A DNA stretch of 64,000 nucleotides from Opitutales bacterium (GTDB taxonomy: Bacteria; Verrucomicrobiota; Verrucomicrobiia; Opitutales; PNEW01), in NCBI GenBank assembly GCA_965197745.1, contig CBDANS010000006.1:544001-608000 (forward strand), given 5' to 3'. Position 1 is the first letter of the stretch. Each line of letters begins with the position of its first letter. The notes under the pieces are model-generated. The model did no database searches. It was not told where the DNA came from and saw only the letters and a program-made list of their open reading frames with translations. The translations under genes were made by a program, and so were the position numbers. Shown piece after piece: positions 4,920 through 53,970 of the stretch.

Positions 4920-5220
4920 TTACAACTTTTTTGAGATAACTTCCTGCAGCATATGCTTGTCCAGGCTTAGATCAGCCACCAGCTTCTTCAAACTAGTGTT
5001 CTCTTCGTCGAGTTGCTTCAGTCGTCTTAATTCGCTGATTCCCATGCCCGCGTATTTACCCTTCCAACCGTGGTAGGTCTGTTCGCTCACGCCTAACTCT
5101 CGACACACTTCGGCGATCCTTCGACCGCCTTCTACCTGCCTTAGGGCATAGATGATTTGTTCTTTATTATATCGTTTGTCAGGCCTTCTCGGCTGCGCCT
5201 CGTGAACCTTTGCTTTTCAT
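4920..5220 (-). pseudogene. IS3 OrfA (HTH) interrupted near its N-terminus
   Basis: ATG AAA AGC AAA GG, then an insert containing TGA, then the KRYNKEQIIYALRQ...CRELGVSEQTY frame. Confidence 0.8.
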
Positions 5221-5305
5221 GGATGGTTCTTTCTCTTATTTTTATTAGGTTTTCCACCCACGCCAGACTAAATCTTTCCTGGTCCAGTTTTACGGGGACA
5301 GGTCA

Positions 5306-5477
5306 AAGGGTGTTAATGGTTTTAGCTGCACTTGGGACAATCGTCTTCAGTCTCTCCCATAAATACACTGACAGCTATTACGCTGCGGCGGTTTTATGTA
5401 TGAGCTTTTCCCTCATCCTGTTTTTATTCTCATTGAAGATAAATAATCCCCAGGAAAAATTTGCACCTTCTCCATAA
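5306..5477 (+). pseudogene. C-terminal fragment of a membrane protein (MFS-like)
   Basis: Hydrophobic frame VLMVLAALGTIVFSLSHKYTDSYYAAAVLC...* begins at the IS end. Confidence 0.45.
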
Positions 5478-5507
5478 CTATTTTACCATTAAGTCTCTTT
5501 ATCAGCC

Positions 5508-6470
5508 ATGAAAGTTCTTTTTCTTCGCAACGCAGACAGGTTACATTTTTCTTATCGTTATCTGGTTGAATTTATTGACGGTCGTTATCCCATTGTAATT
5601 TACGATCCAAACAAACCGGCTGCTGATCAGTTTAAGGAGATTGAGGTAGTCATCGATACGGGAGGGGCCATAGGAACCCATGAGATGATGGACGCGGCTA
5701 AAGCAGCTGAAGTTAAACTATGGCAGGTTACGACCAACGGTCTCGACCATGTCGACACGGAATATATCTTGGGTAAAGGTCTGCTCCTCACCCACTCTCC
5801 GGGGCCCCTAACCGCTGTCCCTCTTGCAGAGCATGCGCTTCTTATGATTCTCTATTTCGCAAAAAACCTCAATCACAATCGCACCAAAGACTGGCATCGG
5901 GTGATGAACGATGAGCTCGAAGGAAAGACTTTGGGATTGGTCGGCTTCGGAGCAAGCGCGAAAGAATTGGCAAGACGGGCCCGGGCCCTGGGATTACGGA
6001 TCATAGCCATTGATAATAGAGATATTCCGCAGCATGAACTCGACGAATTTCATCTCGCCTTTCTTGGATACCCCGAAGATCTTGAAAAAATTCTGGTCGA
6101 GTCTGATTTCCTTTCTGTGCACGTTCCTTTAACCAAGCAAACGCGACACCTGATTGACCAGCACGCTTTCAGCGTAATGAAGGAAAAGGCGGTCCTGATC
6201 AATGTTGCGCGAGGAGAAATCGTTGACAATGATGCACTGATTGAGGCCCTGACAAGCGGTCGCATTAAAGGTGCGGGTATCGACGCATACGCCGAGGAAC
6301 CTTTGGCCCCGGAACATCCCCTTTTAAAGTTAGATAACGTTTTAACTACGCCGCATGTCGCTGGATTCACACAGGGGACGTGGCATCGACGCGCTAAAGC
6401 CGTCGCGGAGAATATTGATCGCTTAGCGAAAGGTTTATCTCCACGCAATCTAGTAAATCCACTGAGGTGA
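5508..6470 (+). CDS. D-isomer specific 2-hydroxyacid dehydrogenase
   Basis: GLVGFGA, HVPLT, INVARG and TPHVAG motifs. Confidence 0.92.
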   Translation: MKVLFLRNADRLHFSYRYLVEFIDGRYPIVIYDPNKPAADQFKEIEVVIDTGGAIGTHEMMDAAKAAEVKLWQVTTNGLDHVDTEYILGKGLLLTHSPGPLTAVPLAEHALLMILYFAKNLNHNRTKDWHRVMNDELEGKTLGLVGFGASAKELARRARALGLRIIAIDNRDIPQHELDEFHLAFLGYPEDLEKILVESDFLSVHVPLTKQTRHLIDQHAFSVMKEKAVLINVARGEIVDNDALIEALTSGRIKGAGIDAYAEEPLAPEHPLLKLDNVLTTPHVAGFTQGTWHRRAKAVAENIDRLAKGLSPRNLVNPLR

Positions 6471-6712
6471 CCCCCCCATGATTATAATTCAGTGAACACC
6501 CTGGTCGGCAGTTTCTGACTCTTGGGACTTGCGATGGGCTTCCAGAATTTTCTGCGTATCAGTCTTGGCCGGTGTGGCTTTAAATTAAAATTCGTTGCAA
6601 TATTATTGGGAGTTATTAGCCTTATGGTTTTGATATGGGGAATATCAATTAATAGACTTTCCCTTTATAAATTGCGAAATATGGTATAATTAACAGTCAA
6701 TTAAAGTAAAAA

Positions 6713-7630
6713 ATGCTTACCGCGCATCAACTCACGCACTTCAATACTTTCGGTTTCCTTCCCCTGCGAGGATTATTCAGCCCGGGTGAAATTGAAACCT
6801 TCAAGGAGGAATTCAAGTCTAAGCTGGAAACCACCCGGCGCTACACAGAACCTGAAGACACGCCTCCCCAGGTTATAAGCTGGACCAACCTGGGTGCGCA
6901 GACGCCCCTTCTCGCCACCTTGATCGAAGACCCGCGCATTGTAAGCATCGCAGAACAGATAATGGGGGAAGACTGCGTTGGAATATCCTGCAACTCGATC
7001 AGCTACGTCAATGATACTGCCTGGCATGCCGATGATTATAATTTTCATATGCACGATCTAAAATTCCTCTTCTACCTCCAACCGGTTGATGGGGATAGCG
7101 GCGCTTTGAGGGTGATTCCCGGATCCCATAAGAAAGCTTTTCATAAAGAAATAGCAAAGTATGACGGTCTCACGGGTTATGATGATGCAGAGAACCGCCT
7201 TGGAACAGAACGTATTAAAGAAGGACCAGCCTATATTTGCGACGTAGAACCGGGTGATGGATTTATCTTTGATTCCCATGTATGGCATGCCAGTTGTGGC
7301 GGATCGACGGATCGGCGCACGTTTTCCATCGTTTATTCTGGAAATCCAAAGAACGCAGAAGAAGGAAGGGCTCTAACGGAATATTTGCATATCACTAATG
7401 AAATCAGGACATCGATAGCCGAAAAAACTTTTGATTCTCCGTCTCCGGAATACCCGCTTGAATGGCTGGATAATCCTGAGCAGAATCCCAGGCGGCAGCG
7501 GTGGATAGATTGGCTGCATAAGTGGAGATTTACAGAGATCGCCCAGGGCACGCTAATCCCGGACGATTCGACCTTACAAACCGTAAAAGCATTTTCTGAT
7601 CCCTTTCGAGATACCCCGGCTGACGAATAG
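6713..7630 (+). CDS. Phytanoyl-CoA dioxygenase (PhyH) family Fe/2OG dioxygenase
   Basis: WHAD, GALRVIPGSHK and WHAS motifs. Confidence 0.88.
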   Translation: MLTAHQLTHFNTFGFLPLRGLFSPGEIETFKEEFKSKLETTRRYTEPEDTPPQVISWTNLGAQTPLLATLIEDPRIVSIAEQIMGEDCVGISCNSISYVNDTAWHADDYNFHMHDLKFLFYLQPVDGDSGALRVIPGSHKKAFHKEIAKYDGLTGYDDAENRLGTERIKEGPAYICDVEPGDGFIFDSHVWHASCGGSTDRRTFSIVYSGNPKNAEEGRALTEYLHITNEIRTSIAEKTFDSPSPEYPLEWLDNPEQNPRRQRWIDWLHKWRFTEIAQGTLIPDDSTLQTVKAFSDPFRDTPADE

Positions 7631-7721
7631 AGTCTGGTCGTGACCATTTATACCAACGATCTATAAGCAGATTTTTAAAAATCTCTGGCATTTAATTATA
7701 AAATAGCAGTTACATTTGCTT

Positions 7722-7758
7722 CCAGATTAATGGGAGAAGTAGACTCCCATTAATCTGG
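7722..7758. repeat. Perfect 15-bp inverted repeat (terminator-like hairpin)
   Basis: ccagattaatgggag-aagtaga-ctcccattaatctgg downstream of the PhyH gene. Confidence 0.7.
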
Positions 7759-8055: not shown

Positions 8056-8735
8056 AGGGCTTCAGAATATCGACGAAGAAAACAGAATCAGCAGCATTGC
8101 AAGAGACTCTCGTTGCCGTTTTAGGCAATGATGTTCCAGGCGTTCAAAAACTGCTCGCTGATTATCTTCTGAAAATTGAAGCCCTGCAGATAGTCTTGGG
8201 AAAAACCATCTAAGCGCGGAGCGATAGCGTGGCGTTGTTGAATTAGCTCAGCAGGCATTGTCGTGTTCGTAGTGGGCTCTATACCGCTGGCGGAGATTCA
8301 GCAGCTTGACCCTGCCCACCGCTTCAAACCTGTAACCGATAAGAAGCCGTTGCTGGTGACTGCAATCGTTTGCCTGTCACGGAAACACTTAACCATTGGC
8401 TACAAAAATTCAATCAAATGCTGGGTGAAATAGTCTCCTAGGTAAACAAGAAACAGGACTGCACATACGCCGCTAAGAGGGACTGCCAGTATCGCTGTAA
8501 AAACTTCGAAAGCAACTACAGCGACCTGTCCACGGGTATGCCTCAAGAGGCCAAACACAGGAATCACGTGTAGGCGTGGGATTTCGTTTAGGACTACACC
8601 CAAAGTGGCGGCAAACTGCGTGTTTTCAGCATCATCGATGTACCGAGGAGCCGCAGGCGATGACACTCGAGCGAAGCGAAGACATAACCACGTGAATGCC
8701 ATATGCTTCATGCACACAGCGCGATCAAGGCAGCC
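8056..8735 (+). mobile_element. Heavily degenerate IS3-family remnant
   Basis: Decayed orfA end and orfB motifs (WDF-like, GGKLRVFSIID). Cut by the IS at 8736. Confidence 0.65.
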
Positions 8736-10070
8736 TGGTCGGGTTAAGCAAACTGGTCCACCGGGAGAGTTAGTCTGGAGAGGTTAATGTCGAAGTTAAG
8801 TGGGTAGAGGAAGACAAGGTTTGAGCGCGTAGACCGAATGGAGACCGAGCCTTCTGTATTGAGGTCTTCAGCAAAGCGCCGTGGGGTGATATTGCCGAGG
8901 CTGCTGATGGGGGGCGGACATGATGGTAAAGTCAGCACCAGTGCTCGATCACAACGCGTGCTTCGGTTAAAGTCCATAACTGTTCACGGTTTAAACACTC
9001 CTCGCGAAAACGGGCATGGAAAGATTCGATGTATCCGTTCTGCCAAGGACTTTCTGGTTCGATATAGAGGGTTCTTATTTTCATCGCAGCCAGCCAGGCT
9101 CGCAATTCCTTTTCAATGAATCGCTTCGCATGTCATCGCTTCGCTCCTCGGAACGCAACCGTTGTCGCTGCGAATATATTGTGGCGGTCCATGCCTCTCG
9201 ATCATTTTTTGCATGATACCGCGAACGGTTTCCGCGTTGATATGGCGATCGACATGGATGACCGGACATTCGCGGGTCTACTCGTCGAGGATGGTCAGCA
9301 TTTTGAGACTCCCACCGCGGACCGTTTTATCGTGGATAAAATCCCAGGTCCAAACATGGCCGGGATGTTCGGCTTTTGTCTGCAGGCCGGTGCAGACACC
9401 CCTGCGTCGGCGTCTTGGCTTGCGTTGGGGGATCGCCAAGCCCAGTTCACGTCGCAGACCTTGCACGAGACGTTTACCCACATGCCAGCCTTCGTCCTTC
9501 AACAGCTTCGTGATCTTGGGATAGCCCCACCTGGCGTATTGCCGTGATAACCGCCTTACTGCCGCCTTCAGTTTCGTTAGCCAGGCATCCGGATGCTTGG
9601 CCTTATACGCATAGGTGGAACGGTGCAGGTGAAAGTATCGGCACGCTGCACGCATCGAACACTGGCCCCGAGCCACAAGTCTCTCTGCCACTTGCCGCTT
9701 GTGCCCAGGGCTTACTACCGAGCGTAAGCGACATCTACCATTTTTTTTCGAGGGTCTCCTGCAGGATCTCTATCCCCAGCATCTTATCTGCCAGCATTCT
9801 TTTTAGCCGCACGTTCTCCTTCAAAGAGCTCTTTCATCCGCTTGGCCTGGTTGACATCAATCATTCCAAACTCACGCTTCCAGCGGGGGAAGGTCTGTTC
9901 GCTGACGTTGTTCTCCCGGCACACTTCCTGGATCGATTTACCCCTGTCTGCTTGCCGCAATATCCGTATCTTCTCTTCGGTGGTGTATTTTTTTGCCTTT
10001 CATTGTCTGAGTCCTTTCTAGGTTACCCAGACTAACTTTTCAAGTGTACCAGTTTTCGTGGTCACGACCA
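8736..10070 (-). mobile_element. IS3-family element, diverged copy of the 25271-26587 type, pseudogenised
   Basis: IRs tggtcgggttaagcaaactggtccac and ...ttttcgtggtcacgacca. OrfB fragment MAERLVARGQCS..., several frameshifts and two micro-insertions. Confidence 0.92.
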
Positions 10071-10330
10071 CCAGTGATGAAAATATACTCCAATGATATC
10101 CAGCTACAGATAATGATTTCATGGTAAATCACATTGATTATAATTACTAAGCTTCGAACTAAGCCGATAGACTTAATCAGAAGTAAGTAGTAATTTGTTG
10201 GTATTTTAAAAAATAGTCAAAATGATTGGACTGCTATGAGTCACAAGTCCCACCAGAACTTACCATCGTTTCGAGTTATTAGCACATATCGGTGTTGGCC
10301 ATTGAATGGTATACCACCCCGTCGGATCTA

Positions 10331-16349: not shown

Positions 16350-16394
16350 TCTTTCAAAAAGTTTTAGGTGTTAAGTTTTAAGTGTTAGGCAATT

Positions 16395-25604: not shown

Positions 25605-25624
25605 GCCCTGGGCACAAGCGGCAA

Positions 25625-32093: not shown

Positions 32094-32098
32094 TACGG

Positions 32099-39177: not shown

Positions 39178-39313
39178 GTAAACCTTCAAGTAAGCTACTC
39201 AAGGCAGAAAGGGGTAAAATGGCTAAGCTTTTCCATAATAGGTTACTGGTCGTGACCACGAAAACTGGTCCACTTGAAAAGTTAGTCTGGTCCAACTAGA
39301 AAGGACACAGACA

Positions 39314-39580
39314 ATGAAAGGCAAAAGATACACGACCGAAGAGAAAATACGGATGCTGCGCCAGGCGGACAAAGGGAAAACGATCCTGGAAGCATGCCGC
39401 GAGAACAACATAAGCGAACAGACCTTCCACCGCTGGAAACGTGAGTTTGGGATGATTGATGTCAACCAGGCCAAGCGGATGAAGGAGCTCGAGAAGGAGA
39501 ACGCGCGGTTAAAACGGATGCTGGCGGACAAGATGCTGGGGATAGAGATCCTGCAGGAGACCCTCGAAAAAAAACTGTAA
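39314..39580 (+). CDS. IS3 transposase OrfA
   Basis: Identical protein to 25338-25604. Confidence 0.92.
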   Translation: MKGKRYTTEEKIRMLRQADKGKTILEACRENNISEQTFHRWKREFGMIDVNQAKRMKELEKENARLKRMLADKMLGIEILQETLEKKL

Positions 39581-39600
39581 GCCCTGGGCACAAGCGGCAA

Positions 39601-40555: not shown

Positions 40556-40563
40556 CCCGACCA

Positions 40564-42012: not shown

Positions 42013-42019
42013 TGCAATT

Positions 42020-42520
42020 GCCGAATACTGATTTTCGATTTATTCCCTTTGTCAGGCAAGTAGGTGGAACGCGCTGTCCCTAGCGCGTTGAGGATATCAC
42101 GATTGAAGAAGCGTGCTAGGGACAGCCCGCTCCACCTTCAGCCATCACTCGTATCGTGATGCTGATGATATCCGATTTTTGATATCTGATATTCGATTTT
42201 CGAGGTGTTGGAGTTACTTCAGATATCGAATATCGGATATCGTACTTCGTATATCTGTCAACTTAATGTTCGGGTTGCTTTTGATCCTACACAAGAAAGA
42301 GTTGGCCACTACCGAGCGTAGCGAGATCTTACAATCCATGCAGATGTCGGAAGCCTATTGACATTCCCCTGGATTGCCGCGTCGAGCTACTCCTCGCAAT
42401 GACAATTTTATAAAAACTCATTCTTGTGCCTTGTGGAAGATCTCGCTGCGCTCTGGTAGTGGCTATTTTTTCTTACTTCGCACATCGTATATCGCATATC
42501 GTACTTCGTATATCTGTTTT
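42020..42520. repeat. Mosaic repeat cluster (REP-like pair 42062-42137, 7-mer gatatcc-type arrays, half GTCATTGCGAG element, two micro-insertions)
   Basis: Direct inspection of palindromes and tandem heptamers. Confidence 0.75.
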
Positions 42521-42566
42521 TTGGTATCCGTTAAGCGCCTTTCCGACGATTAACTGAGCATCTTTT

Positions 42567-43022
42567 TTAATAAAACTCCATTTCTTGAATGGGGAGATAG
42601 AGTACTTCTTTAAAACCATTCTTGAAGTCGTTCCAGAAATCATTTCTTAAGACTTCGGGAAAGAGTATCCTGTCAATCAATTCTTTTCTGTCGAACCAAC
42701 CCGCTTCAACGATGTGCTCACGCGCCGTTTCCGATTCCGCCACGTGCGGTGTCCCGGAGCGATAGTCACATAAAACCCAAACCTTTAATAATCTTAGCTC
42801 AGGATTATATAATTCTTCCACATAGGCCATTTTACCTGGCTCGACATCTATGCTTGTCTCTTCCAGTACTTCCCTTTTCGCGGCATCGAAAACACTTTCA
42901 GATCCCTGGACGCCACCACCCGGAGCCACCAAAAAATCATAGGCTCCCTCTTTCTTGTGACGGACAAGCAAAATCTTCTCTTCATTGACAACGAGAGCTC
43001 CGGCGGAAATCCGATGAATCAT
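42567..43022 (-). CDS. NUDIX hydrolase
   Basis: PGGGVQGSESVFDAAKREVLEET. Confidence 0.88.
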   Translation of the reverse strand: MIHRISAGALVVNEEKILLVRHKKEGAYDFLVAPGGGVQGSESVFDAAKREVLEETSIDVEPGKMAYVEELYNPELRLLKVWVLCDYRSGTPHVAESETAREHIVEAGWFDRKELIDRILFPEVLRNDFWNDFKNGFKEVLYLPIQEMEFY

Positions 43023-43405
43023 CGATTGCCCGGTTTTCTCTTATGAATGCCAATCTTGTTGCCATCGGGATCCGAGATGACCGCAATATAACAAGACCAG
43101 CACTCAGCGGGCCCAAGTTCTATGCTGACACCGCAGTCTTTAATGTGCTGGATAGCTTCGTCAAAGTCTTCGACTTCAAGAGAGAGTCCAGAACTTGGCT
43201 GTTCAGGGGGTTTACCATCTTCCCATGCCGTGGTTATAGCGAGCGTATTGGGACCAATTTCATATTCGAAAAATCCCCTGTCTGAATTTAATTCTCCATC
43301 CATGACTTTGGGTGGCGGAAGTCGAAGGACTTCTTCATAAAATTTTCGTGCACGCTTCATACTCTCTACGGGATGACCGACAAACGCGAATTCAGTAATT
43401 TTCAT
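43019..43405 (-). CDS. VOC/glyoxalase family protein
   Basis: ARKFYEEVL...DPDGNKIGIH. Confidence 0.85.
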   Translation of the reverse strand: MKITEFAFVGHPVESMKRARKFYEEVLRLPPPKVMDGELNSDRGFFEYEIGPNTLAITTAWEDGKPPEQPSSGLSLEVEDFDEAIQHIKDCGVSIELGPAECWSCYIAVISDPDGNKIGIHKRKPGNR

Positions 43406-43439
43406 GATTTACTCCTGTTCTCATAGTATAGTTAATAAT

Positions 43440-44020
43440 ATATGAGATAGACGAGGACGAAGAATTGATGTCTATCCCTTTACAATATAGCTGTGTATTC
43501 ATCATTCCCATAAATTTAATACGGCCACGACGACGCGTGGCCCTCCAGGTAATAGGGTGATTATGGGATCATATGTGAATGTGGGGATGCGTAGATGCGT
43601 GAATGTGGGAACATGTGGATATGTGAATGAACTTTATGGAGGGACGCGCGTCGTCGCGTCCGCGTTTTATGTTAATTAGATGGAGATTAAGAAGTGTTGC
43701 ATCACATGCAATAATCTTCGTCTACGTCTGCCTCCACCTCTTCGTCTTGAATTGAAATCTCAAATATTGTAAATAATTTATGGAGATAGACGAAGAATTG
43801 ATGCATCTCTCATTACAATTTATCTGCTTATTCATCATTCCCATAAATTTAATATGGCCACGACGACGCGTGTCCCTCCAGGGAATTATGGATATGTGGG
43901 TAAGCGTATAAGAGGAAACGTGGGGTGAAATAACTGGAGGGACGCACGTCGTTGCGTCCGCGTATAATCCATTATATTCCGAACACCTGGCGGCCATGAC
44001 GGAGCATGGCCCTCCATTAA
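43440..44020. repeat. Cluster of five REP-like palindromes (tggaggg[a/c]c[g/a]cgc..gtcg[c/t]g[t/g]ccg) with duplicated spacers and 8-mer arrays
   Basis: Units near 43522, 43637, 43855, 43935 and 43990 in alternating orientation. 43440-43550 is repeated at ~43775-43885. Confidence 0.8.
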
Positions 44021-44027
44021 TTTTCAT

Positions 44028-44921
44028 TTATAATACCACTTTGGGGGTTGAATTTTCAGCTGGTTGATTATCATACCCGGGCCAATCATCGGCAATATAT
44101 TTAACAACACTGTCCTCTTCATTGGTTCCGATGATATGGCTCGCATGAGACTTTAATTCGTCAGAGCCGTTTGCCACGGCAATCGCACGATCGGATAACT
44201 TAAACATTTTAAGATCATTAGCGCTATCTCCGAAAGTAACGAGTTCCTGAATATCTTCCCTCCCGTTTCTCAAGACCTTCTGTATCCCTTTATCCTTGGA
44301 AGCCTCCCGATCCTGAAGCGTCAACCAGTACCATCCCGGGGAATACACATTTTCCAAACAATGCATCTCAACCATTTGATCGAAATCTTCTTCGATCGCG
44401 TGCGCCAATTCGAGCATCACCTCTCTTTTACCGATTGTCGTGATACAAACCACATCATCGTCAAAAGAGTCGGAAATATTTTCAATTTTTCGCAACCGTG
44501 AATCATTATGAGCGACGAGGCTTTTATAATACCAGTCCATTCCTTCATTGGCAATCTCTGTAAAATAGAGACAATCCTGCTGCCCATTATAGGTTGAAAT
44601 ATAGGGCACGCAACCACGGTCATCTATAAGTTGGTAGATAGCTTCAACCGTCTCCCGATTGATTTCATTGATAACCTCATGATGACCTGTTTTGAGATCG
44701 GAAATGAATGCTCCATTTAATTCAATGATCGGCAACTGAATTTCCAAACCTTCGAGTATCGGGCGCATTGAGACGACGCTTCGAGCGCTTGCAACCGTGA
44801 ATTGCAGCCCATCGGCAATCATTCCGTTAAGACAATGCTTGCTATACGAAGAAAGACTGGCGTCATCTCTAAGCAGAGTGCCGTCCAGATCGGAAATATA
44901 AATTACTTTATCGCTCATCAA
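44028..44921 (-). CDS. Cof-type HAD-IIB hydrolase
   Basis: SDLDGTLL, ASAR, NGA and FGDSANDLKM. Confidence 0.9.
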   Translation of the reverse strand: MMSDKVIYISDLDGTLLRDDASLSSYSKHCLNGMIADGLQFTVASARSVVSMRPILEGLEIQLPIIELNGAFISDLKTGHHEVINEINRETVEAIYQLIDDRGCVPYISTYNGQQDCLYFTEIANEGMDWYYKSLVAHNDSRLRKIENISDSFDDDVVCITTIGKREVMLELAHAIEEDFDQMVEMHCLENVYSPGWYWLTLQDREASKDKGIQKVLRNGREDIQELVTFGDSANDLKMFKLSDRAIAVANGSDELKSHASHIIGTNEEDSVVKYIADDWPGYDNQPAENSTPKVVL

Positions 44922-44956
44922 TAGGTTGGAATGGAGCTCTCCCCCTTAAATCCCCT

Positions 44957-45862
44957 CTACTTTTTTATCTCTAATAAATCATGATCACGCATCCAGTCGG
45001 CCCATCGGTGGTGCCAGGTTGAGACCGGAAGATCCCAGGTTTCCCCGTGATGTATGACATTGGGACGCAGACCGAAACCGTGTTCACCTTTTTCGTAGAT
45101 GTGCATCTCTGCCGGCACCTTTGCTTTTTTAAGAGCCAGGTAGAAATTTATACTAGTTTCTGCCCAATCAATTGATTCTTCGTCGGTCAGGATAATAAAA
45201 GTGGGCGGGGTGTTAGAAGAAACTTTATCCACATTATTGGCTCCGTATTGAAGAACCAAATAGTCTGGCCTGGAACTGACTCTATCAATGGGATCCTCGG
45301 CGTCACTTATTCCATTATCAAATTCTGTTGCTGCATCCGCAGCTATCATCGCACCCGCTGAACCACCCATAATTATTATCTTATGAGAATCTATATTCCA
45401 TTCTTCAGCTCGACTACGCACCAACCTAATGGCGCGTTGCGCATCGTGAAGCGGGATGGGATGATCGAAAGGGGGAACAGTACGGTACTTAAGAACAAAT
45501 CCAGCAACGCCGAGAGTATTCAACCATTCAGCAATTTCATATCCTCCCTTATCGATGGCGAGATACCTGAACCCTCCACCGGGACAAATTATTACTGAAG
45601 TCCCAGTCGCTTTGTTTTTTGAGGGCAGGTAAATCCTCAAGGTAGGTTCAGTAACATTATAGATGGCGCGATCAACGATACCGGTGGTACGATAGACAAC
45701 TTCCTCATTGACTGTAAATTCCTCAGATCCCGGAGCCCCGTCTGGCCAAAGAGGAATTTCCGTGAATTGAGCACCAAAGGCCCGACAGGATAATAACAAT
45801 AACGCTGTTAGTATTGCGATTTTGAACAACCTGAACGTGTTATTAAATTTTATCATGATCAA
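44957..45862 (-). CDS. Secreted alpha/beta hydrolase (acetyl esterase-like)
   Basis: ICPGGG, GGSAGA and HGFG. Confidence 0.88.
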   Translation of the reverse strand: MIMIKFNNTFRLFKIAILTALLLLSCRAFGAQFTEIPLWPDGAPGSEEFTVNEEVVYRTTGIVDRAIYNVTEPTLRIYLPSKNKATGTSVIICPGGGFRYLAIDKGGYEIAEWLNTLGVAGFVLKYRTVPPFDHPIPLHDAQRAIRLVRSRAEEWNIDSHKIIIMGGSAGAMIAADAATEFDNGISDAEDPIDRVSSRPDYLVLQYGANNVDKVSSNTPPTFIILTDEESIDWAETSINFYLALKKAKVPAEMHIYEKGEHGFGLRPNVIHHGETWDLPVSTWHHRWADWMRDHDLLEIKK

Positions 45863-45927
45863 TTATAATTACTGGTAAATATTGGATGCTTTATCTCTAT
45901 CATCGTAGTCTGAAACCACATTACGAG

Positions 45928-46395
45928 TCAAATGGGGTCGGACTGACTGATAGCAAACCAATATATCCAAAGAAGGATAACGACCTGCAGCGGGGCGCGT
46001 ATCAGGAGATAAACGGGCCCCCAGGCATGACCTCCCATCGGGATATGATTTATCGCGGCGTAGACATTCGCGGGAAAGAATAAAATAAGCATGACTGCAG
46101 CAAACCATCCGGTGAATCGCCTCGTTTTTTTCGCAAGGAAACCCGCGGCAATTGCGAACTCCATGAATCCCGTTAGGTAAACTAGAAGCTCCCGCTCCGG
46201 GACCCACGGTGGTAACATGGCAGCCATCGGCTCGGTCATAATAAAGTGTCCCATACCCGTGAAAACGAACAAAATGGTCAGGCCGAGAGCGGCGGCGCGT
46301 TGAAGGTCAAATTCATGATGCAGCGCAGCTGACAGTAACCGTGCGACGGCATAAGGACCGATCATTAGTATCAGCATCAAAATTGGCGCTGTCAT
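45928..46395 (-). CDS. DoxX-like membrane protein
   Basis: FTGMGHF, MLPPWVP, FPANVYAA and RAPLQ. Confidence 0.75.
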   Translation of the reverse strand: MTAPILMLILMIGPYAVARLLSAALHHEFDLQRAAALGLTILFVFTGMGHFIMTEPMAAMLPPWVPERELLVYLTGFMEFAIAAGFLAKKTRRFTGWFAAVMLILFFPANVYAAINHIPMGGHAWGPVYLLIRAPLQVVILLWIYWFAISQSDPI

Positions 46396-46424
46396 TACAA
46401 TTATCGGAGTTTTTCAGTCCCCTG

Positions 46425-47273
46425 CTAAGGTTTTTCACCACGTCTTAACCTCGCCTCGATATCATCTAAGCACGGCATCAGATCAGCAATGCTGTCGACA
46501 ACATAGTGGGCCCCACGCTGGTACATGGTGGGGTAAATGCGATCCCGGTGTTTTTGTTTTACCTCGTCGGGGAAGGCGTTCCAATCTTCGAGCGGGACAC
46601 CCACCTCATTGCCGGAAACAGCCAACCCAACGGCCCAGCAACCTGCATTGAGACCTTCCTCGATTCCGGTCAAGGTATCGTCGATTTTTACTACCGATTG
46701 CACCGGCGAAACGTCGAGTTCAATGATGTTACGCAATACCATGTGCGGGTAGGGACGTCCACGCTTCACATCGCCGGCTCCGTAGGTGGCGTCGGGGGCA
46801 TAACCCTGTTTTTCCGCATCCGCCTGGTTGATGGCGAGCATGCCGGGTAGATATCCGGAAGTAGAACCAATCTTATAGCCACGCTTACGGCATTCTGCGA
46901 CGACCTCGAGTGTGCCTGGTATGAGTTTTGAGTATTGCGACAGGCAAGCTTCCTGCATGGGCACGAAATCTTTAAACATACGGTTCACGTCATCCGCAGT
47001 CGGTTCGGCGCCGTGGGTTTCAACCCAATGCCGGCTAACACTGGGAATTTCGCAGATCAATCCGATATGAACTTTCTTGTGCGCCCCCATGGGAATGCGT
47101 GCTTCCTCAAGGGTGATGGGGACGCCGGCTTTCTCAAACACCTGGCGGAAAACTACAGCCGGCGCCATGCAACCGAAGTCCAGGGTTGTGCCAGCCCAAT
47201 CGAGGATGATGCCGCGGATCGGGCCACGGTATGCACGGTCGTATGTAAATTCACGTTCGTTTGTAAATTGCAT
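46425..47273 (-). CDS. phnX: Phosphonoacetaldehyde hydrolase (phosphonatase)
   Basis: LDWAGTTLDFG, PMGAHKKVHI (Schiff-base Lys), GRPYP and VKIDDT..GIEEGLNAG. Confidence 0.93.
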   Translation of the reverse strand: MQFTNEREFTYDRAYRGPIRGIILDWAGTTLDFGCMAPAVVFRQVFEKAGVPITLEEARIPMGAHKKVHIGLICEIPSVSRHWVETHGAEPTADDVNRMFKDFVPMQEACLSQYSKLIPGTLEVVAECRKRGYKIGSTSGYLPGMLAINQADAEKQGYAPDATYGAGDVKRGRPYPHMVLRNIIELDVSPVQSVVKIDDTLTGIEEGLNAGCWAVGLAVSGNEVGVPLEDWNAFPDEVKQKHRDRIYPTMYQRGAHYVVDSIADLMPCLDDIEARLRRGEKP

Positions 47274-47379
47274 AAGAAATGAACTTTATCCTGGGGGCTT
47301 TAGGGTTTCAGGTAAAGGGTATTACTATCAGTTGCTGTGGTACCGGATATTATTGCACGTGGTTCAGCGCGATGTCGGT

Positions 47380-47800
47380 TATCTCCTTATTGTCATTGCG
47401 AGGCCACTAATATTAAATTAGCGGACGTGATTAGCCTCGTCCCGTTCCCCGGACGCGACGGAGCGCGTCCCTCCATTTTCTTCACCCTTAATATAGACAT
47501 TGTATCTCAAAAAAAGATCACCCTTCTGGAGGGCCACGCGTCGTCGTGGCCGTGGCGATCTAGAGCTATGTCGGCTTCTCCTCGGTACGATTGCTGATTG
47601 AATAAGAGAATGGCGGATGTCGGTTATCTCCATATTGTCATTGCGAGTCCTGCAACCGCAGAACGAAGCAATCCAGGGGATCGCCGGTTACGTGTTGATA
47701 TTCGCCTGGATTGCTTCGTCGCAACGCTCCTCGCAATGACATGTGAGAAAGCAGACTTTACCGCATACGCGCATTTCCGTGTATTCGCTTATCCCCTTTT
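47380..47800. repeat. REP-like cluster including an intact GTCATTGCGAG...CTCGCAATGAC element (47637-47740)
   Basis: Long inverted repeat plus ggagggac-type palindromes near 47450 and 47528. Confidence 0.82.
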
Positions 47801-47911
47801 GTCTTCTTCATATTGCAAGCTGTCTATTGTTGATTAACTCGAGTATAGAAATTGATAAGGTTACTTTCCGGTTCAATTTTGAGAACTTCCCTGTAAAATG
47901 CCCTCAAACGT

Positions 47912-48640
47912 TCAGGAAAATTGGTTCTCAATCAACGCGGGAAGATCCTTGACGCTGGGAATGACGTGTGTGTGCCAATAGCTTCCCCATGCTTCGACCG
48001 GTCGAGGACCGCTCAGGACACCGACAATTCCGCGACATCCGGCGTTGTATCCTTCCAGCATATCGGCGGGGGTATCGCCGATCTTGAGCACCTCGTGCAC
48101 GCTCTGTATGTCAAGCTGTGTCATGGCGTAGTAAATCATGAAGGGGGCAGGTCGGCCGCGGTCGCCGGGAATATGCTCAACATCGACAGAAATATCGACC
48201 AATCCGTCTCGGACCCATCCCAAACCGTCCATGATCGCTTCTGTAATATCCCGGTGAAAACCTGTGTCAGTGGCCACCTTAATGCCGTGCTCGTGACACC
48301 ACCGGAAGGTGTCTGAAGCTCCCTCGACCTCGCGGACTTCCTTGCTATAGTGATCGATCATGATCTGCGAATATCGATCGAAGATCTTCGTTGCTTCCTC
48401 TTTCGTTTCCGGATCGATGTTCTTCTCGAAATCTTCGATTGTAATGTCCTGCCCCCTCGCGCGGGCGATGAGAAACTGATAGAGATGAATCTTGTTCGTC
48501 CCCATGTGCAGAAGTATTTCGTCAGGTGTGGTTTTCAAATCGAATTCCACGGCTGCCTTGTAGAGACAGTCCCGGACCCCGGTGTCGTCGTGAACCGTTG
48601 TTCCTGAGAGATCAAACATGACCATACTTAATTTGCTCAT
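47912..48640 (-). CDS. Phosphonatase-like HAD hydrolase
   Basis: FDLSGTTVHD, GRPAPFMI and KIGDTPADMLEG. Confidence 0.85.
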   Translation of the reverse strand: MSKLSMVMFDLSGTTVHDDTGVRDCLYKAAVEFDLKTTPDEILLHMGTNKIHLYQFLIARARGQDITIEDFEKNIDPETKEEATKIFDRYSQIMIDHYSKEVREVEGASDTFRWCHEHGIKVATDTGFHRDITEAIMDGLGWVRDGLVDISVDVEHIPGDRGRPAPFMIYYAMTQLDIQSVHEVLKIGDTPADMLEGYNAGCRGIVGVLSGPRPVEAWGSYWHTHVIPSVKDLPALIENQFS

Positions 48641-48709
48641 TCCTATTGTATTCCTTTCTAATTGGTTAATGGTTCAGACTTTCGCCTTCTATTCCGTGCC
48701 ACCCGCGTT

Positions 48710-49438
48710 TCAACCCTGGCAGCTCGCGTGTAATTGAACAATTTCGGAAAGGGTAAGCATGGCGTCCGGTGAATCACCTAATTCCGCCACCACATGGTCA
48801 GCCTCTGAAAAATCTTCCTCTGCGCTATAGGCGCTGGTGGTTACGAGACAAATCATGCCGGCCGCTTTCGCAGCCAACAGGCCGTTTCGAGTATCCTCGA
48901 CAACGACACAGTCTTGCGCCGAAACACTGAGTCGCTCCCGGGCGAGATTGTAGATTTCCGGGTCAGGCTTTTTATTTTGGACGATATCGCCGGCCAAAAT
49001 TTCATCAAATTTCGCTTTTCTATGCGGGCCGAGTAACTTTTCCAAAATAAGGTTTACCGACCTCTCGTTTGAGGTGGAACAAACAGCCAGCTTAACACCG
49101 ACCTCAATGGCTTCATCGATTATTCGCTCCACCCCGGAGCGTAGCGGCAGTTCTCCTGAATCAATGATGCGCATGAATATATCGGTTTTCAGCGCATGTA
49201 ATTCCTTTATAAATTTATCGCGGTCCTCTTCCCTTACTCCGGGCGGCCACCCATCGCCATGGAAGTGATGCCGCATGCGCTCCTTGCCCCCGGATATGGC
49301 CAAAAGTCGACCATATAGTTCAACGCTCCATTGCACATTCAATTCATATTGGGAAAATGCGCGGTTGAAGGACACCCGGTGTCCGTCGCGTTCAGTGTCG
49401 ACCAACACGCCATCGCAATCAAAAATTAATGCTTTCAC
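48710..49438 (-). CDS. CbbY-like HAD-IA sugar-phosphate phosphatase
   Basis: FDCDGVLVDTERDGHRVSFN, GGKERM and KKPDPEIY. Confidence 0.85.
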   Translation of the reverse strand: MKALIFDCDGVLVDTERDGHRVSFNRAFSQYELNVQWSVELYGRLLAISGGKERMRHHFHGDGWPPGVREEDRDKFIKELHALKTDIFMRIIDSGELPLRSGVERIIDEAIEVGVKLAVCSTSNERSVNLILEKLLGPHRKAKFDEILAGDIVQNKKPDPEIYNLARERLSVSAQDCVVVEDTRNGLLAAKAAGMICLVTTSAYSAEEDFSEADHVVAELGDSPDAMLTLSEIVQLHASCQG

Positions 49439-50310
49439 TTTACTGATGCCAAATCCTGCCCTTTACCAGATCCACCAAACTGCCGGATCTTTTCTCTAAC
49501 AAGCTGCTTCATACTTGTATACTGGGCTTCCAACACCCGCAGCGGTTCGTAGTCGTCGGGATTGTCACGGTGGTAATCGGCAAACCCATCGATGAAGGCG
49601 TGCTTCAGGTTAGTCGAGATATTCACTTTAGCGCAGCCCGACTTTATGCAGCGCTGAATAATCTCGTTGGACAGTCCAGTTCCACCGTGAAGAGCCAGGG
49701 GTGTAGCCGTTCGGTGATAAATTTCATCGATTAAATCAAAAGCAACATTGGGTGTTCCCTTGTAAAACCCGTGAGCGGTGCCAATAGCCGGAGCGAAAAC
49801 ACCCAGATCGAGTTCCCGGCAAAAAATTTCCGCTTTGTCTGGATCCGCCAGATGAGCATCCCCATTCCCAACGACAATCTCTTCTTCAACCCCGACGATT
49901 TCTCCCAATTCCGCTTCAACACCAACCCCCGCCGGAGTGGCCATCTCCAGAACCTGACGGGAGACAGCAAGATTCTCATCAAAAGGCAGGTGCGAGCCAT
50001 CGATCATGACGGAAGTCCACCCCGTTTCAATGCAACGGCGGATCATATCCAATTCTTTGCCGTGATCCAGATGGAGGACGACAGGGAAAGGTGAATGCTC
50101 CGCCAGATCCCGCATCCAACCCGCTAATGTTTCATGCCCGTAATATCGCACTGTTTTGGCCGATGCCTGAACGATCACCGGGGCATTCTCTTCTTCCGCC
50201 GCGCGCACGATGGCTTTCATGGAAGCGTAATCAACCGGGTTGAATGCTCCCACGGCATAACCTGCTTTAGATGCGGCTTTCAATATCGGATTCAAACTTA
50301 CTAATGACAT
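49435..50310 (-). CDS. Class II fructose/tagatose-bisphosphate aldolase
   Basis: YAVGAFN, HLDHG, GTAHG, LHGGTG and KVNIST. Confidence 0.92.
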   Translation of the reverse strand: MSLVSLNPILKAASKAGYAVGAFNPVDYASMKAIVRAAEEENAPVIVQASAKTVRYYGHETLAGWMRDLAEHSPFPVVLHLDHGKELDMIRRCIETGWTSVMIDGSHLPFDENLAVSRQVLEMATPAGVGVEAELGEIVGVEEEIVVGNGDAHLADPDKAEIFCRELDLGVFAPAIGTAHGFYKGTPNVAFDLIDEIYHRTATPLALHGGTGLSNEIIQRCIKSGCAKVNISTNLKHAFIDGFADYHRDNPDDYEPLRVLEAQYTSMKQLVREKIRQFGGSGKGQDLASVK

Positions 50311-50351
50311 TTCATGCTCTTCTTTTGATTTTTTTAAATTCGGATTTGTAA

Positions 50352-51461
50352 CTAAGAACAAGGTTCCACGATCGGTCGGATTCCTTCCCTACTTTCCAAA
50401 GCACTCATTGCCTCGGTAACACCCTCCGCCGATAAGGGATAACGTGGTCCTGCCATTTCGAAAAAAGGATATCTCTCCTGATTGCGATGGACGAGGTTAA
50501 TAGCCATCCCGAGATGCCTCGGTTCGTAATTGTGTCGTCCCACCAGGGTCAAACATTTGGTGATGACATCGTAGGAATGGAGGGTGAAAGTATCATTCGG
50601 ATAAACCGCGCCCTGGAGAAGGTAGCGCCCGCCTGTCCGCAGCATATTTATACCTGTTTCCACAACCCTGGCAAAGCCCGTGACCTCGATTAACAGATCG
50701 GCGCCTCTCCCATCGGTCAATTCCCTAACCGCTTCTACCTGATCATCGCAATCCAGCTTTTCGGCATTCAGGGTGCGATCCACTCCAAAGCGTTTTGCCA
50801 TCTCCAGGCGTGTATCAAGAATATCAACCATGATCACCTGGCTCGCACCTGAAGCTTTGGCAAATGCCGCCGCATATAAACCAAGCATGCCGGCACCCTG
50901 AATTACCACGGTATCTCCGTGATCCACCCCAATCCTGTCCAATCCGCCGGCAACTGTAGCCGCTGCGCACATCAATGGGGAAGCAGTCTCATCCGGCATG
51001 CCTTCGGGAAGCTTGAATATCCCCGTCCCCGGTTTCAGGTAAACATACTCACCAAATGTCCCGAGGAAATAAGGAGGTACATCACTGACGGAGTGACCGT
51101 ATTTAAACAGATTCAAGCATTTTTGCGGCAGCGCATAATCCTGGCAAAAGATACAATCGCCGCACGACGCCATGATCGTCCAGGAAATCCGATCACCCAC
51201 GGATAGTTGCTCACCCGCGGCATCCCTGGCATCCCTGTCACCCATTTTCTCCACGATGCCTACACCTTCATGACCCATCACTGAAGGCACAGGAAAAGGT
51301 CGACGCCCTTTCCAACTGTGCATGTCGGAACCACACACCGTAGCGATTTTCGTTTTTACAAGGATCGCTCCTGGTTCCAAATCATCCGGCAGCGGATATT
51401 CCCGATCCTCCAGGGGCTCACCCACACCTAGAAAGAATACTGCTTTCCCCCTCTTACTCAT
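50352..51461 (-). CDS. Zn-dependent alcohol dehydrogenase (phosphonate-catabolism-associated type)
   Basis: CGSDMH, GHEG, structural Zn Cys cluster, QKCLNLFKYGH and GAGMLG. Confidence 0.88.
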   Translation of the reverse strand: MSKRGKAVFFLGVGEPLEDREYPLPDDLEPGAILVKTKIATVCGSDMHSWKGRRPFPVPSVMGHEGVGIVEKMGDRDARDAAGEQLSVGDRISWTIMASCGDCIFCQDYALPQKCLNLFKYGHSVSDVPPYFLGTFGEYVYLKPGTGIFKLPEGMPDETASPLMCAAATVAGGLDRIGVDHGDTVVIQGAGMLGLYAAAFAKASGASQVIMVDILDTRLEMAKRFGVDRTLNAEKLDCDDQVEAVRELTDGRGADLLIEVTGFARVVETGINMLRTGGRYLLQGAVYPNDTFTLHSYDVITKCLTLVGRHNYEPRHLGMAINLVHRNQERYPFFEMAGPRYPLSAEGVTEAMSALESREGIRPIVEPCS

Positions 51462-51619
51462 ATCCCATCAATACAATATATTTCTTACCAACTCACTGCA
51501 CCACTCATTATGCAAGGTAACTCCGCCGCCATATTGCCACAAGATTTATTATTATGAATTGGGTCGTAGAACTATAACGATTGAGATATCATAAGGTTGC
51601 GATTTGATACACGATGCAT

Positions 51620-52435
51620 GTTGAAGGGCCACGCTATGCCTGTCATGCCGTAGTCCCGTGGTGGCGGGACGAACGAAGGCAGATCGTGGCCGTTTGTTAT
51701 TCGGTAATTATCGGAAAATACGCGGACGCGATCAGCCGTCGCCCGGTGGACTATGGCCGACAGGCATCGCGCGTCCCTCCATATTTTACATCCCCTCGTG
51801 CACGCTTCTACGCATTCACCCATAATCGCATTCACCCTTTCAACTTTCTTTCTATTGTCATTGCGAGGATCCTGCAACTGCAGGAGACGCGGCAATCCAG
51901 GCGAATGCCGGATACGTGTTGATATTCGCCTGGAATGTAAGATGTCAGGCTACTGCCCTCGGTAGCCACGTCGCAACGCTCCTCGCAATGACAGTTGAGA
52001 AAAAAGTCTATTTCTGCTTTACCGCTTACACACATTACCGCATATCCACATTCACCCTTACTCCCTTTTACCCATATCTACATTACCTGGAGGGCCATGC
52101 TCCGTCATGGCCGTTAGGTGTTCGGTAAATAACGAAAAATACACGGACGCGATCAGCCGTCGCCTCGAAGATGCGCGAGGACTATGGCCGACAGGCACTG
52201 CGCGTCCCTCCATATTTTACATCCCCCCGTGCACGCTTCTACGCGTTCACCCATTCACGCATAATCGCATTCACCCTTTCAACTTTCTTTCTATTGTCAT
52301 TGCGAGGATCCTGCAACTGCAGGAGACGCGGCTACCGAGCGCAGCGACATCTTCCATTCCAGGCGAATGCCGGTTACGTGTTGATATTCGCCTGGATTGC
52401 TTCGTCTCCCGCAGTTGCGGGATCCTCGCAATGAC
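51620..52435. repeat. BIME-like mosaic of REP-like elements with a tandem duplication and nested micro-insertions
   Basis: GTCATTGCGAG elements at 51857-51992 and 52296-52435. ~51695-51935 repeats at ~52120-52400. Confidence 0.85.
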
Positions 52436-52564
52436 AAAGGTAATCAAAACCCAATCCGTAAAAAGGGTTACCCGACGGTTACTTATCACTATCTGGCTGT
52501 CTTGGATCGCGCATCCTAATATTATGAAGGGAGCAGACCTTTTTTTAATATTCCCCCTTTGAGC

Positions 52565-52608
52565 TTGACAGACTGCCTGATTAATATAAATTAATGAGTT
52601 TATACTCA
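52565..52608 (+). promoter_or_regulatory. Sigma70-like promoter and palindromic operator upstream of the TetR gene
   Basis: TTGACA at 52565, AT-rich -10 region, tgagt-ttat-actca palindrome at 52595-52608. Confidence 0.55.
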
Positions 52609-52627
52609 CTGAGTTATTACTTATCAA

Positions 52628-53221
52628 ATGATTGCGGTTGGAAAAAGAGTCAAACAGAAAGCAGAGACGCGAGAACGAATTCTTAAAGCTGCTTACCATG
52701 AATTTTCGAAAAAAGGAATCCAGGCGACGAAGACTGCCGAGATTGCCCGATCAGCTAAACTTTCGCATGGGGCAATCTTTGTTCATTTCGCCACTCGAGA
52801 GGACATTCTAGCCAGTGTAATTGATCAATTTGGTATCAGGTTAGGCAGCCAATTGGAGAAACGCCTGAAAAATAAAAGCAGCGTTCGCGAGATACTTAAA
52901 GCTCACCTTAATACCATTAAGGAATTCGAATCGTTTTATACGGAATTAGTCATCCTGGGACCACAATTGCCTAAATACGTACGAGGAACTTTATTTACGG
53001 TGCAGAACGGGTTGTTGCATTATTTTATGGCAGCCCTGGAAAATGAGATTCCGAGCAAACGTTATCGCCATCTATCCAAAAGTCTAATATTTAATACCTG
53101 GATGGGGTTGGTTCATTATTATGTAGCGAACAGAGATCTTTTTGCGCCAGGAAGATCGATTATCTCAAAACAGGGTAATCGGATTATAAGACATTTTCTA
53201 AACCTGATTGATGTAAAATAA
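52628..53221 (+). CDS. TetR/AcrR family regulator
   Basis: TRERILKAAYHEFSKKG..EIARSAKLSHGAIFVHF HTH. Confidence 0.92.
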   Translation: MIAVGKRVKQKAETRERILKAAYHEFSKKGIQATKTAEIARSAKLSHGAIFVHFATREDILASVIDQFGIRLGSQLEKRLKNKSSVREILKAHLNTIKEFESFYTELVILGPQLPKYVRGTLFTVQNGLLHYFMAALENEIPSKRYRHLSKSLIFNTWMGLVHYYVANRDLFAPGRSIISKQGNRIIRHFLNLIDVK

Positions 53222-53239
53222 CAATGGAAGGAGAAAACA

Positions 53240-53491
53240 ATGACGGAAAAGTGTAAAGCATGTGGTTCCTGTGGTATGCCTCTATTAAATAAAGAAGATT
53301 TTGGAGGGGCCGATATGAGTAACGATTACTGTGTACATTGCACCGATGGGGACGGTAAGTTAACGGCTACATTCGAGGGAATAGTATCTTATTATGCTGA
53401 CGAGTTTCAAAAAGAACAAGGTCTGGACAAAACTGAGGCACGAAAGATGGCCGCAGAAACCGTTTCTAAATTACCCGCCTGGAGTAATTGA
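53240..53491 (+). CDS. Putative zinc-ribbon domain protein
   Basis: CGSCGMPL...DYCVHC...LPAW. Confidence 0.8.
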   Translation: MTEKCKACGSCGMPLLNKEDFGGADMSNDYCVHCTDGDGKLTATFEGIVSYYADEFQKEQGLDKTEARKMAAETVSKLPAWSN

Positions 53492-53559
53492 TTATTTAAT
53501 GGGTAGATTTGTAGAGGTTAAACTAACAAACTGAATTTATTATTTTAATTGGAAAGGGT

Positions 53560-53970
53560 CAGCCTCTGCATGGAAGATCTTAGTGAGAAAGAAGTCTTTT
53601 ATGTTAGCTCGAGACCTGCAACAGCGGCGCTAAGCTACCGAGTGCAGTAGCCCACCTGTCGTCCATAGCCACGTCGCAACGCTCCTCGCAATGACAAGTG
53701 AGAAAAAAGTCTATTTCTGCTTTACCGCTTACACACATTACCGCATATCCACATTCACCCTTACTCCCTTTTACCCATATCCACTTTACCTGGAGGACCA
53801 TGCTCCGTCATGGCCGTTAGGTGTTCGGTAAAGAACGGAAAATACACGGACGCGACGACGCGCGTCCCTCCATTATTTACATTCCCGCATTTCCACTTGT
53901 TCGCTTACACCCGTAACCGTGTTCCAGCTTTACCGCTTACACGCATTTTCGCGTATTCGCTTATCCCCTA
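53560..53970. repeat. REP-like cluster duplicating ~51965-52150 and ~47755-47800
   Basis: Near-identical ~190 bp block beginning agccacgtcgcaacgctcctcgcaatgac. Confidence 0.82.

Follow-up and report, generated by a model that had tools for sequence, protein, structure and literature searches.

Ultra-short hairpin inserts in the repeats and IS3 transposase genes of an Opitutales bacterium, with filled and empty sites

The inserts and where they lie

The stretch of DNA considered here, the window below, is 64,000 nucleotides of the genome of a marine Opitutales bacterium (C6:544001-608000 of G000, an assembly of 4.45 Mb in 7 contigs, with 45.5% G+C and 92% complete). It holds insertion sequences (IS) of the IS3 type in two kinds, IS3a and IS3b, whose ends differ, together with copies of a palindromic miniature inverted-repeat transposable element (MITE) and arrays of degenerate heptamers. 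Set into these repeats are very short inserts that share their ends and differ in a hairpin between them (Table 1). The initial annotation of the window had listed 15 such stretches, and all 15 are confirmed letter for letter in its sequence. The one given as 8641-8701 had been extended too far; against empty alleles the true insert ends at 8684 and the remainder is IS3 sequence.

The family to which the inserts belong is real and represents a rare type of mobile DNA that is poorly understood. At 24-44 nt, and with no coding capacity, its members count among the smallest mobile elements so far known. On the two strands of the window there are 12 matches to a strict pattern, T[AT]CCGAG-N3-30-GA[CG]A[TC], where 100 second-order Markov simulations averaged 1.23 and never exceeded 5, which bears out the earlier claim of a genuine family. 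A fuller pattern has 123 matches genome-wide, compared with 12 for a third-order Markov control. Recognisable copies in the genome number at least 215: 94 curated simple copies, picked by a pattern that demands GA[CG]A after the core, and 73, 26, 9 and 13 copies of four IS3-borne variants.

Table 1. Inserts, empty target sites and MITE features of the window (position 1 is its first nucleotide)
Feature	Position	Strand	Remarks
Possible degenerate copy (TTCACGAG...GACA)	5177-5206	-	missed by the strict pattern; no empty allele found
44-nt compound insert, IS3 site A	8641-8684	+	after the G of a D-E-Y codon run; set against empty alleles
33-nt insert, IS3 site B (SDNGS/E/F, integrase core)	9121-9153	-	in IS3a-like copy 8736-10072(-)
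25-nt insert antisense to IS3	9716-9740	+	2 nt past the A8 slippery run of the orfA/orfB frameshift window
28-nt canonical copy (core GGGCGAAGCCC)	18586-18613	-	in heptamer array (AATCNNN)
Empty site A	21708-21729	+	in IS3b-like copy 20964-22310(+)
Insert, site B	21849-21881	+	in IS3b-like copy 20964-22310(+); reading frame shifts +1
Insert, site C	21961-22004	+	takes the place of AA in the Q codon (PWQNG); net gain 42, in frame and free of stops
Empty site D (RD/E/C)	22035-22056	+	in IS3b-like copy 20964-22310(+)
Empty frameshift-window site (GGGCTTAC-AG-T8)	25591-25608	-	in IS3a
Insert, site B	26163-26195	+	in IS3a copy 25271-26587(+); splits OrfB, so that the rve half and the rve_3 half have different frames
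Empty frameshift-window site (GGGCTTAC-AG-T8)	39567-39584	-	in second IS3a copy
Insert, site B	40139-40171	+	in IS3a copy 39247-40563(+)
24-nt copy, GAGAT tail variant	42310-42333	+	after ...GGCCAC
25-nt copy, altered 5' motif (TACCAGAG)	42434-42458	-	after ...AGCCAC; degenerate or compound; no empty allele found
Copy at heptamer-array end	47553-47587	-	5' half canonical, 3' half aberrant or compound; no empty allele found
Palindromic MITE copy 1	51855-51992		left arm empty (GGC-AA-TCCAGG, 51886-51906), right arm filled by 51936-51964(-)
Palindromic MITE copy 2	52294-52437		left arm filled by 52333-52356(+), right arm empty (52386-52406)
Complex or degenerate copy	53636-53665	+	beside MITE arm; no empty allele found
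Empty MITE arms reading GC-AA-TCCAGG	51886-51906(+), 52386-52406(-), 42363-42383(-), 47700-47720(-)		
MITE arm motifs	42394, 47393, 47638, 47731, 53686, 54763		

Filled and empty sites

Filled and empty paralogues occur together in this genome, and the inserts are therefore real insertions. Five target positions are known in IS3: sites A-D, defined by an alignment of five IS3b-type copies, and the frameshift window. Site B falls between the S and F codons of SDNGSEF, with the break at positions 77-79 of the 102 in Pfam rve, and among 83 paired copies it is filled with standard spacing in 66, filled with variant spacing in 2 and empty in 15. The frameshift-window site is empty in 35 copies (33 with AG, 2 with CG) and filled in 4, plus one variant. 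Thirteen IS3a copies that are at least 99.5% alike comprise 9 filled and 4 empty ones, and their differences besides the 33-nt insert amount to one linked base (T-to-C, 3 nt downstream of the insert), a 1-nt slippery-site indel found in both the filled and the empty class, and four further single columns. The five IS3b-type copies read ++++, ++--, -++-, --++ and --++ at A to D; A and D thus occur in all four combinations, so that either recurrent gain or recombination has been at work. The empty sites that the initial annotation had named in the window, in the frameshift window and in MITE arms, were located at the sequences given for them.

At the 5' side the joint is precise. In 87 of the 94 curated copies the base before the first T is C or G, so the rule proposed earlier holds as a strong preference and not as the 'always' with which it was first stated. 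At sites A-D, in the frameshift window and in the CCCTGAA repeat an insert with CA at its end takes the place of two target bases, AG or AA, and filled sites carry no target duplication, in keeping with the original description of 1-2 target bases lost or changed. At the MITE sites one extra base follows the insert end (T in 35, C in 5 and A in 3, for 43 of 44 rows judged by eye). The orientation of entry is fixed relative to the target. An exact 5' joint combined with a sloppy 3' joint suggests that the reaction is directional and strand-specific.

Some IS3a copies, such as C4:136890-138134 of G000, when compared with 25271-26587 of the window, show a 1-nt indel in the slippery run that fuses orfA and orfB into a 415-aa frame and removes the need for programmed -1 frameshifting; this variant is present in insert-free and in insert-bearing copies.

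The unit and its hairpin

The simple unit comprises TACCGAG (at times TTCCGAG), a variable core, GACAT (or GAGAT, GACAC) and a pyrimidine-rich tail ending CA, which gives the layout 5'-T(A/T)CCGAG, variable GC-rich hairpin, GACAT-YTYCA-3'; the commonest complete 3' block of simple copies is GACATCTTCCA. Simple forms are 24-35 nt long, mostly 24, 28 or 35, and two-module compounds measure 43-44 nt. Among the 94 simple copies there are 59 distinct cores, for example GCGCAGC, GGGCGAAGCCC and GTCCCGCAATTGCGGGAC, in three length classes of 7-8, 9-12 and 18 nt. Pairing within the cores averages 3.98 pairs, against 2.40 +/- 0.12 (maximum 2.69) in 200 shuffles. The stems are GC-rich and of 2-7 bp, and the loops in the commonest cores have 3-4 nt. 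Many of the differences between cores are paired changes, such as GGGC/GCCC, GGAC/GTCC, TCCCGC/GCGGGA and TCCTGT/GCAGGA.

The shortest cores are exactly the GCGNAGC/GCGNNAGC mini-hairpin DNA motif. A 2026 review gives melting temperatures of 76.5 C for d(GCGAAGC) and 71.5 C for GCGTAAGC, and places such mini-hairpins at single-strand replication initiation sites (PMC13037366). It is the comparison of copies and these published melting data, not computed energies, that speak for the hairpin. As the short cores are a DNA motif with high published melting, the relevant moving form is most likely single-stranded DNA, presumably handled by a single-strand mechanism of the HUH type.

Consequences for the IS3 transposase genes

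In IS3b the insert at site A adds a net 42 nt in frame and carries TGA, that at site B adds 31 nt and shifts the frame, that at site C is the in-frame one of Table 1, and that at site D adds 35 nt, shifts the frame and meets TAG; the frameshift-window insert adds 23 nt. As read from the sequence, the inserts are predicted to break the transposase gene at four of the five sites, by a frameshift or an in-frame stop. Many Opitutales IS3 transposases that are annotated as 'frameshifted' would then be genes broken by these inserts and not by random decay.

The subfamily IS3b1 is a special case: sites A and B are both occupied in all 23 full-length copies, and none of the IS3b copies seen has an intact transposase gene. 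The likeness of the IS3b1 copies to one another could have several sources. The inserts may have swept through a family that had already expanded, concerted evolution may keep the copies alike, or some transposase may still be made.

Other repeats as targets

Nearly all copies lie inside other repeats, in both orientations and mostly outside genes. By place, the 94 simple copies divide into 44 in MITE arms, 10 in a second repeat (...AGCCAC/AAAGGCAC...), 17 in heptamer arrays, 4 in the IS3 frameshift window, 3 in CCCTGAA repeats and 16 elsewhere, two of the last being in the inverted ends of an element that carries a 341-aa Y1 transposase and is known from G001 and G002. The heptamer-array copies are at separate loci, save two duplicated pairs. 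No simple copy in G000 clearly interrupts an ordinary gene, the long open reading frames over pattern matches being either tail-less chance matches or cases at predicted 5' ends.

The MITE is about 140 nt long and palindromic, with one target in each arm, and its two copies in the window are filled independently, on opposite arms. The arm itself shares an insert-like build, with TGTCATTGCGAG, a hairpin and GACGCGGC, and its hairpins are interchangeable modules of the same three kinds. In their sequence of constant block, interchangeable hairpin and constant block the arms resemble repetitive extragenic palindromes (REPs), and the arm motif TCATTGCGAG occurs 129 times in the genome. The degenerate heptamer arrays (AATCNNN, also CCCTGAA) are intergenic and are hot spots for inserts, at 18560-18650 and 47520-47600 in the window and at many loci genome-wide.

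Age and spread

IS3 families whose proteins share only about 42-44% identity contain an identical 33-mer, which follows ...GGTTCCG, ...GGCAGTG and ...GGATCGG; it follows that the unit has defined ends and gets into hosts that are not homologous. Two lineages, of 14 and 9, make up the 23 full-length IS3b1 copies, and 14 copies match one reference copy at 98.4% identity or more. The consensus sequences of the lineages differ at 93 of 761 positions (12.2%) before insert A, at 26 of 127 (20.5%) between A and B and at 8 of 200 after B, while within the inserts they differ at none (0 of 44 in A, 0 of 33 in B). Were differences to occur at the background rate, both inserts would be free of them with a probability of about 4e-5, and so the inserts entered, or were homogenised, after the hosts had diverged. 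On these alignments the inserts are younger than the insertion sequences that carry them, and the tract of low divergence beside B looks like co-conversion, as in intron homing.

The reading favoured here, with moderate confidence, is that the inserts are ultra-short non-coding mobile DNA modules whose entry is directed to sites after C or G, with loss of A-A/G, and which spread both by insertion and by homing-like copying. There would be two routes. By the first, the unit would on rare occasions be inserted, in a site-directed way, into new targets without homology; by the second, it would be copied efficiently between related repeat copies, much as in homing, through short-patch gene conversion or re-insertion. 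With single-stranded DNA as the most likely moving form, the best candidate for the activity would be a trans-acting nuclease-ligase of the HUH/Y1 type that recognises 'tag plus hairpin'; the copies have no gene of this kind linked to them.

Weighing the explanations

Several observations weigh against this reading of site-directed, homing modules. The sole Y1_Tnp gene of G000, at C6:162763-163781(-), is frameshifted and has no copies adjoining it, and among ten Y1 loci of relatives, with 1.5-kb flanks covered, a canonical copy is present only at L015, some 600 nt from the gene, so that the link to HUH and REP-associated tyrosine transposases (RAYTs) drawn by the initial annotation is not supported. 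Among the 41 relatives a 341-aa Y1 family is present in all five genomes that bear the elements but also in 8 of the 36 without them, and as the genomes are kin this co-occurrence is weak, suggestive at best. In G001, which is a single contig, the orientation of copies is mixed at short range, and a lagging-strand bias of the IS200/IS605 type is not evident, no formal test having been made. A comparison of G001 with G002 found an insert missing in G002, but the left flank there cannot be aligned, and no clean orthologous empty site between genomes results; in the orthologue search the heptamer locus of the window gave gene-body matches only. Some of the variety at MITE sites could reflect recombination among mosaic MITE copies and not separate insertions. 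Paired changes in palindromes can come from one-step intrastrand template switching and are no proof of structural selection. Lastly, the 24-nt and the IS3-borne forms show no significant energy in nearest-neighbour folding, whether treated as DNA or as RNA; of the stable mini-hairpin envisaged at the outset, the match of the cores to a motif of high published melting stands, and for the shortest cores folding predicts no stability.

Some of the same facts would suit an account without any dedicated mobility, in which a few old accidental insertions have been shuffled by recombination, gene conversion and template switching and multiplied with the transposition of their host IS and MITE copies. 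It could explain why the T-to-C change is linked to the IS3a insert at 3 nt while the slippery-site indel is common to filled and empty classes, why two diverged IS3b lineages have become almost alike over the 200 nt that follow insert B, and why MITE arms are mosaics of constant segments and interchangeable hairpins; 121 of the 215 copies, moreover, sit in IS3 copies and are clearly riding along. What it accommodates poorly is the presence of the same 33-mer, with the same first base, in IS3 families too diverged for homologous exchange and with different preceding 5 nt, the 17 or more heptamer-array copies at their mostly separate loci, and the mutual dissimilarity of the targets (MITE, ...AGCCAC repeat, Y1-element ends and CCCTGAA repeats). 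This account is unlikely, though it deserves to be taken seriously. Rather more doubtful is an extension of the favoured reading, in which a dedicated activity writes GC mini-hairpin oligonucleotides into S/A-A/G of structured or single-stranded repeats and then homes through related copies, as a parasite of parasites or as an anti-transposon device of the host. On this extension, IS3 transposases would be disabled both in the frameshift window and at codons of the catalytic core that are conserved, and the signature would be identical inserts in IS3 lineages 12-20% apart together with an IS3b family that is filled throughout.

It is also conceivable, at a probability that we put very low, that the inserts act in RNA or in translation, being removed from the transcript or bypassed by the ribosome, so that the IS3 transposases are functional and the inserts serve as attenuators. 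Recoding of this kind would be in accord with the filling of every IS3b1 copy at A and B in a family of such close likeness and with no intact gene, with the perfect conservation of inserts between diverged hosts, with the in-frame, stop-free insert C, and with the +31 nt of insert B, where a +1 slip at CCG-A-GGA would reopen the frame; it expects IS3b peptides across inserts A and B that read VPGAKRRHAKPF. Since insert A has an in-frame TGA, and insert D leads to TAG and needs a different shift, little weight is placed on it, and it has further against it that copies occur in both orientations and mostly outside genes, that intact empty IS3a copies coexist with filled ones and that an Rfam scan of the window gives no family at gathering score. 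Scarcely likelier to be correct, and if anything a little less so, is the idea that the inserts are scars of an excised larger transposon with ends TACCGAG... and ...GACATCTTCCA, the hairpin having formed during break repair. Constant ends around a variable palindromic middle do superficially resemble footprints with palindromic additions, and target bases are damaged at the 3' joint. However, no longer parent copy with these termini, such as the initial annotation had proposed to look for, was found in G000; of 82 GACATCTT[CA]CA sites 65 have the 5' motif no more than 40 nt away, and most of the other 17 read as degenerate short copies. Three discrete core length classes and identical cores recurring at unrelated sites are likewise not what random repair would be expected to give. 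There is almost no chance that the whole pattern is a chance motif or an assembly artefact. No support for this was found, though public contigs break at repeats, so that the junctions are not bridged independently: when the contigs of four DNA runs were compared with 41000-54500, one run was of the same strain with contigs ending at repeats, the other three carried repeats only, and no listed piece spanned an insert with 31 nt on both sides. Against it stand the ten-fold excess of the motif over simulation and the same family in the same contexts in the separately assembled G001, G002, G015 and G040 and in other Opitutales records.

Candidate enzymes

Nothing in the window could move the inserts, as the initial annotation had maintained, and in G000, at its 92% completeness, there is no match to the reverse transcriptase domain RVT_1 (PF00078). 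Tyrosine integrases have 14 matches in G000. A tyrosine integrase gene of 429-432 aa lies directly beside or inside IS3 copies at C4:135290-136585, C7:1065044-1066330 and C7:164668-165954; it was set aside as a separate matter, since the border that it forms with one truncated IS3 copy falls some 20 nt beyond site C.

The 341-aa Y1 (HUH) transposase has a DnaA-C-like C-terminal part and 30-nt inverted repeats at its bounds (L016:1423-2448; L017). It is intact in G001 and broken in G000, and has 61 matches in G040. At another locus, L014 (G015:C86), a unit like a MITE arm (TTGTCATCGCGAG, hairpin, GTGG) lies upstream of a 159-aa Y1 gene, at a distance of about 175 nt; no other hint of a REP/RAYT-like pairing was seen.

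Relation to known systems

Mobile DNA is normally thought to require hundreds of bases at its ends and an enzyme gene somewhere. Here a unit of 24 bases has before and after alleles, defined ends, a reproducible junction rule and repeated hits on the same transposase codons. Literature searches found no published description of this insert family, and to that extent the initial view of it as undescribed stands; the concept itself has a published precedent in the small dispersed repeats (SDRs) of Nostoc, which are the nearest in concept, while the nearest in architecture are the CGTC/TGTC-tagged REPs.

The SDRs of Nostoc and Anabaena (SDR4-6) are reportedly non-coding, dispersed and about 21-27 nt long, interrupt sequence that is otherwise continuous, and are said to favour other repeats. 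The inserts here are comparably small against that range, mostly 24, 28 or 35 nt, non-coding and dispersed in at least 215 copies over 4.45 Mb, and they too interrupt paralogues that are otherwise continuous, at sites A-D, in the frameshift window and in MITE arms. We know of no enzyme for SDRs, and there is none known for the present inserts. The likeness noted is one of description, and the host is a member of the Verrucomicrobiota, order Opitutales, not a heterocystous cyanobacterium; the exact sites inside IS3 transposase genes and the defined rule of dinucleotide loss are also points of difference. In one account HIP1 is an insertion site of SDR5, and among the HIP1-rich cyanobacteria examined SDR-like repeats were found in none outside Nostocaceae (PMC5861425). 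HIP1 is not enriched in G000, with 100 copies in 4.45 Mb, and an origin of this DNA from cyanobacteria is rejected.

CGTC/TGTC-tagged REPs, as described by Di Nocera et al. (2013, PMC3733652), have a short stem-loop that abuts the tag, with stems and loops heterogeneous within a family; those with CGTC have stems of 8-9 bp starting with A-T pairs, loops of 4-5 nt and a CCA tail opposite the tag, are mostly extragenic dimers and have no dedicated transposase known. The GACA/GACG that follows the stem here, in the 94 selected copies and in MITE arms, is TGTC/CGTC on the other strand, and heterogeneous stems and loops, a CCA end and the lack of a known dedicated transposase are shared with these REPs. 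The differences are that the stems here are of 2-7 bp and GC-rich, that CCA lies beyond the tag on the same side, that a second constant block, TACCGAG, flanks the stem, and that proof of insertion from filled and empty sites is not a hallmark of those REPs.

A further kind, the GTAG REPs and the REPINs, reportedly go with RAYT transposases. According to Messing et al. (2012, PMC3479197), tag and imperfect hairpin are read as single-stranded DNA, and the RAYT cuts between C and T. Such REPs reportedly occur as singlets and inverted doublets, to which the palindromic MITE with its two like arms is comparable, as is the lack of target duplication. The constant blocks here are TACCGAG and GACAT, with no GTAG beside the hairpin, and the joint lies between S and A with loss of A-A/G instead of at the RAYT's C and T; in G000, and among the ten Y1 loci of relatives with their 1.5-kb flanks, no RAYT was seen with copies on its two sides. 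IS200/IS605 elements and their miniatures need two hairpins, one per end, and go in on the 3' side of a fixed word of 4-5 nt. They share with the inserts the lack of inverted terminal repeats and of target duplication, and a hairpin-dependent, orientation-specific insertion, but the inserts have one hairpin, all that their targets have in common is the last base (C or G, in 87 of 94) and A-A/G, and there is no obvious strand bias. Identification of the enzyme would show how small the substrate of a DNA insertion system can be and might yield a very small site-directed 'writer', and the family would be a tractable second example beside the unexplained SDRs of Nostoc.

Distribution

The motif scan, which the initial annotation had proposed extending from the window to the genome and its relatives, places the motif in 5 of 41 relatives, with a reversed-pattern control at 0 everywhere. 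Copies that fit the exact pattern number 44 in G000, 66 in G001, 83 in G002, 6 in G015, 5 in G040 and 0 in the other 36 relatives; G003, an assembly 82% complete in 290 contigs, has none. In 400 other genomes of the phylum there was one match, without a hairpin, and the control pattern also gave one. In a scan over all species, in which at least 92 stretches matched, hairpin-bearing copies in repeat contexts occur, among the matches listed, only in records of Opitutales and Puniceicoccaceae. Matches in Poribacteria were rejected, as eight loci (L023, L025, L026, L041, L044, L056, L062 and L095) are one conserved coding sequence; it fits the search pattern with a 20-nt gap and could mislead scans by pattern.

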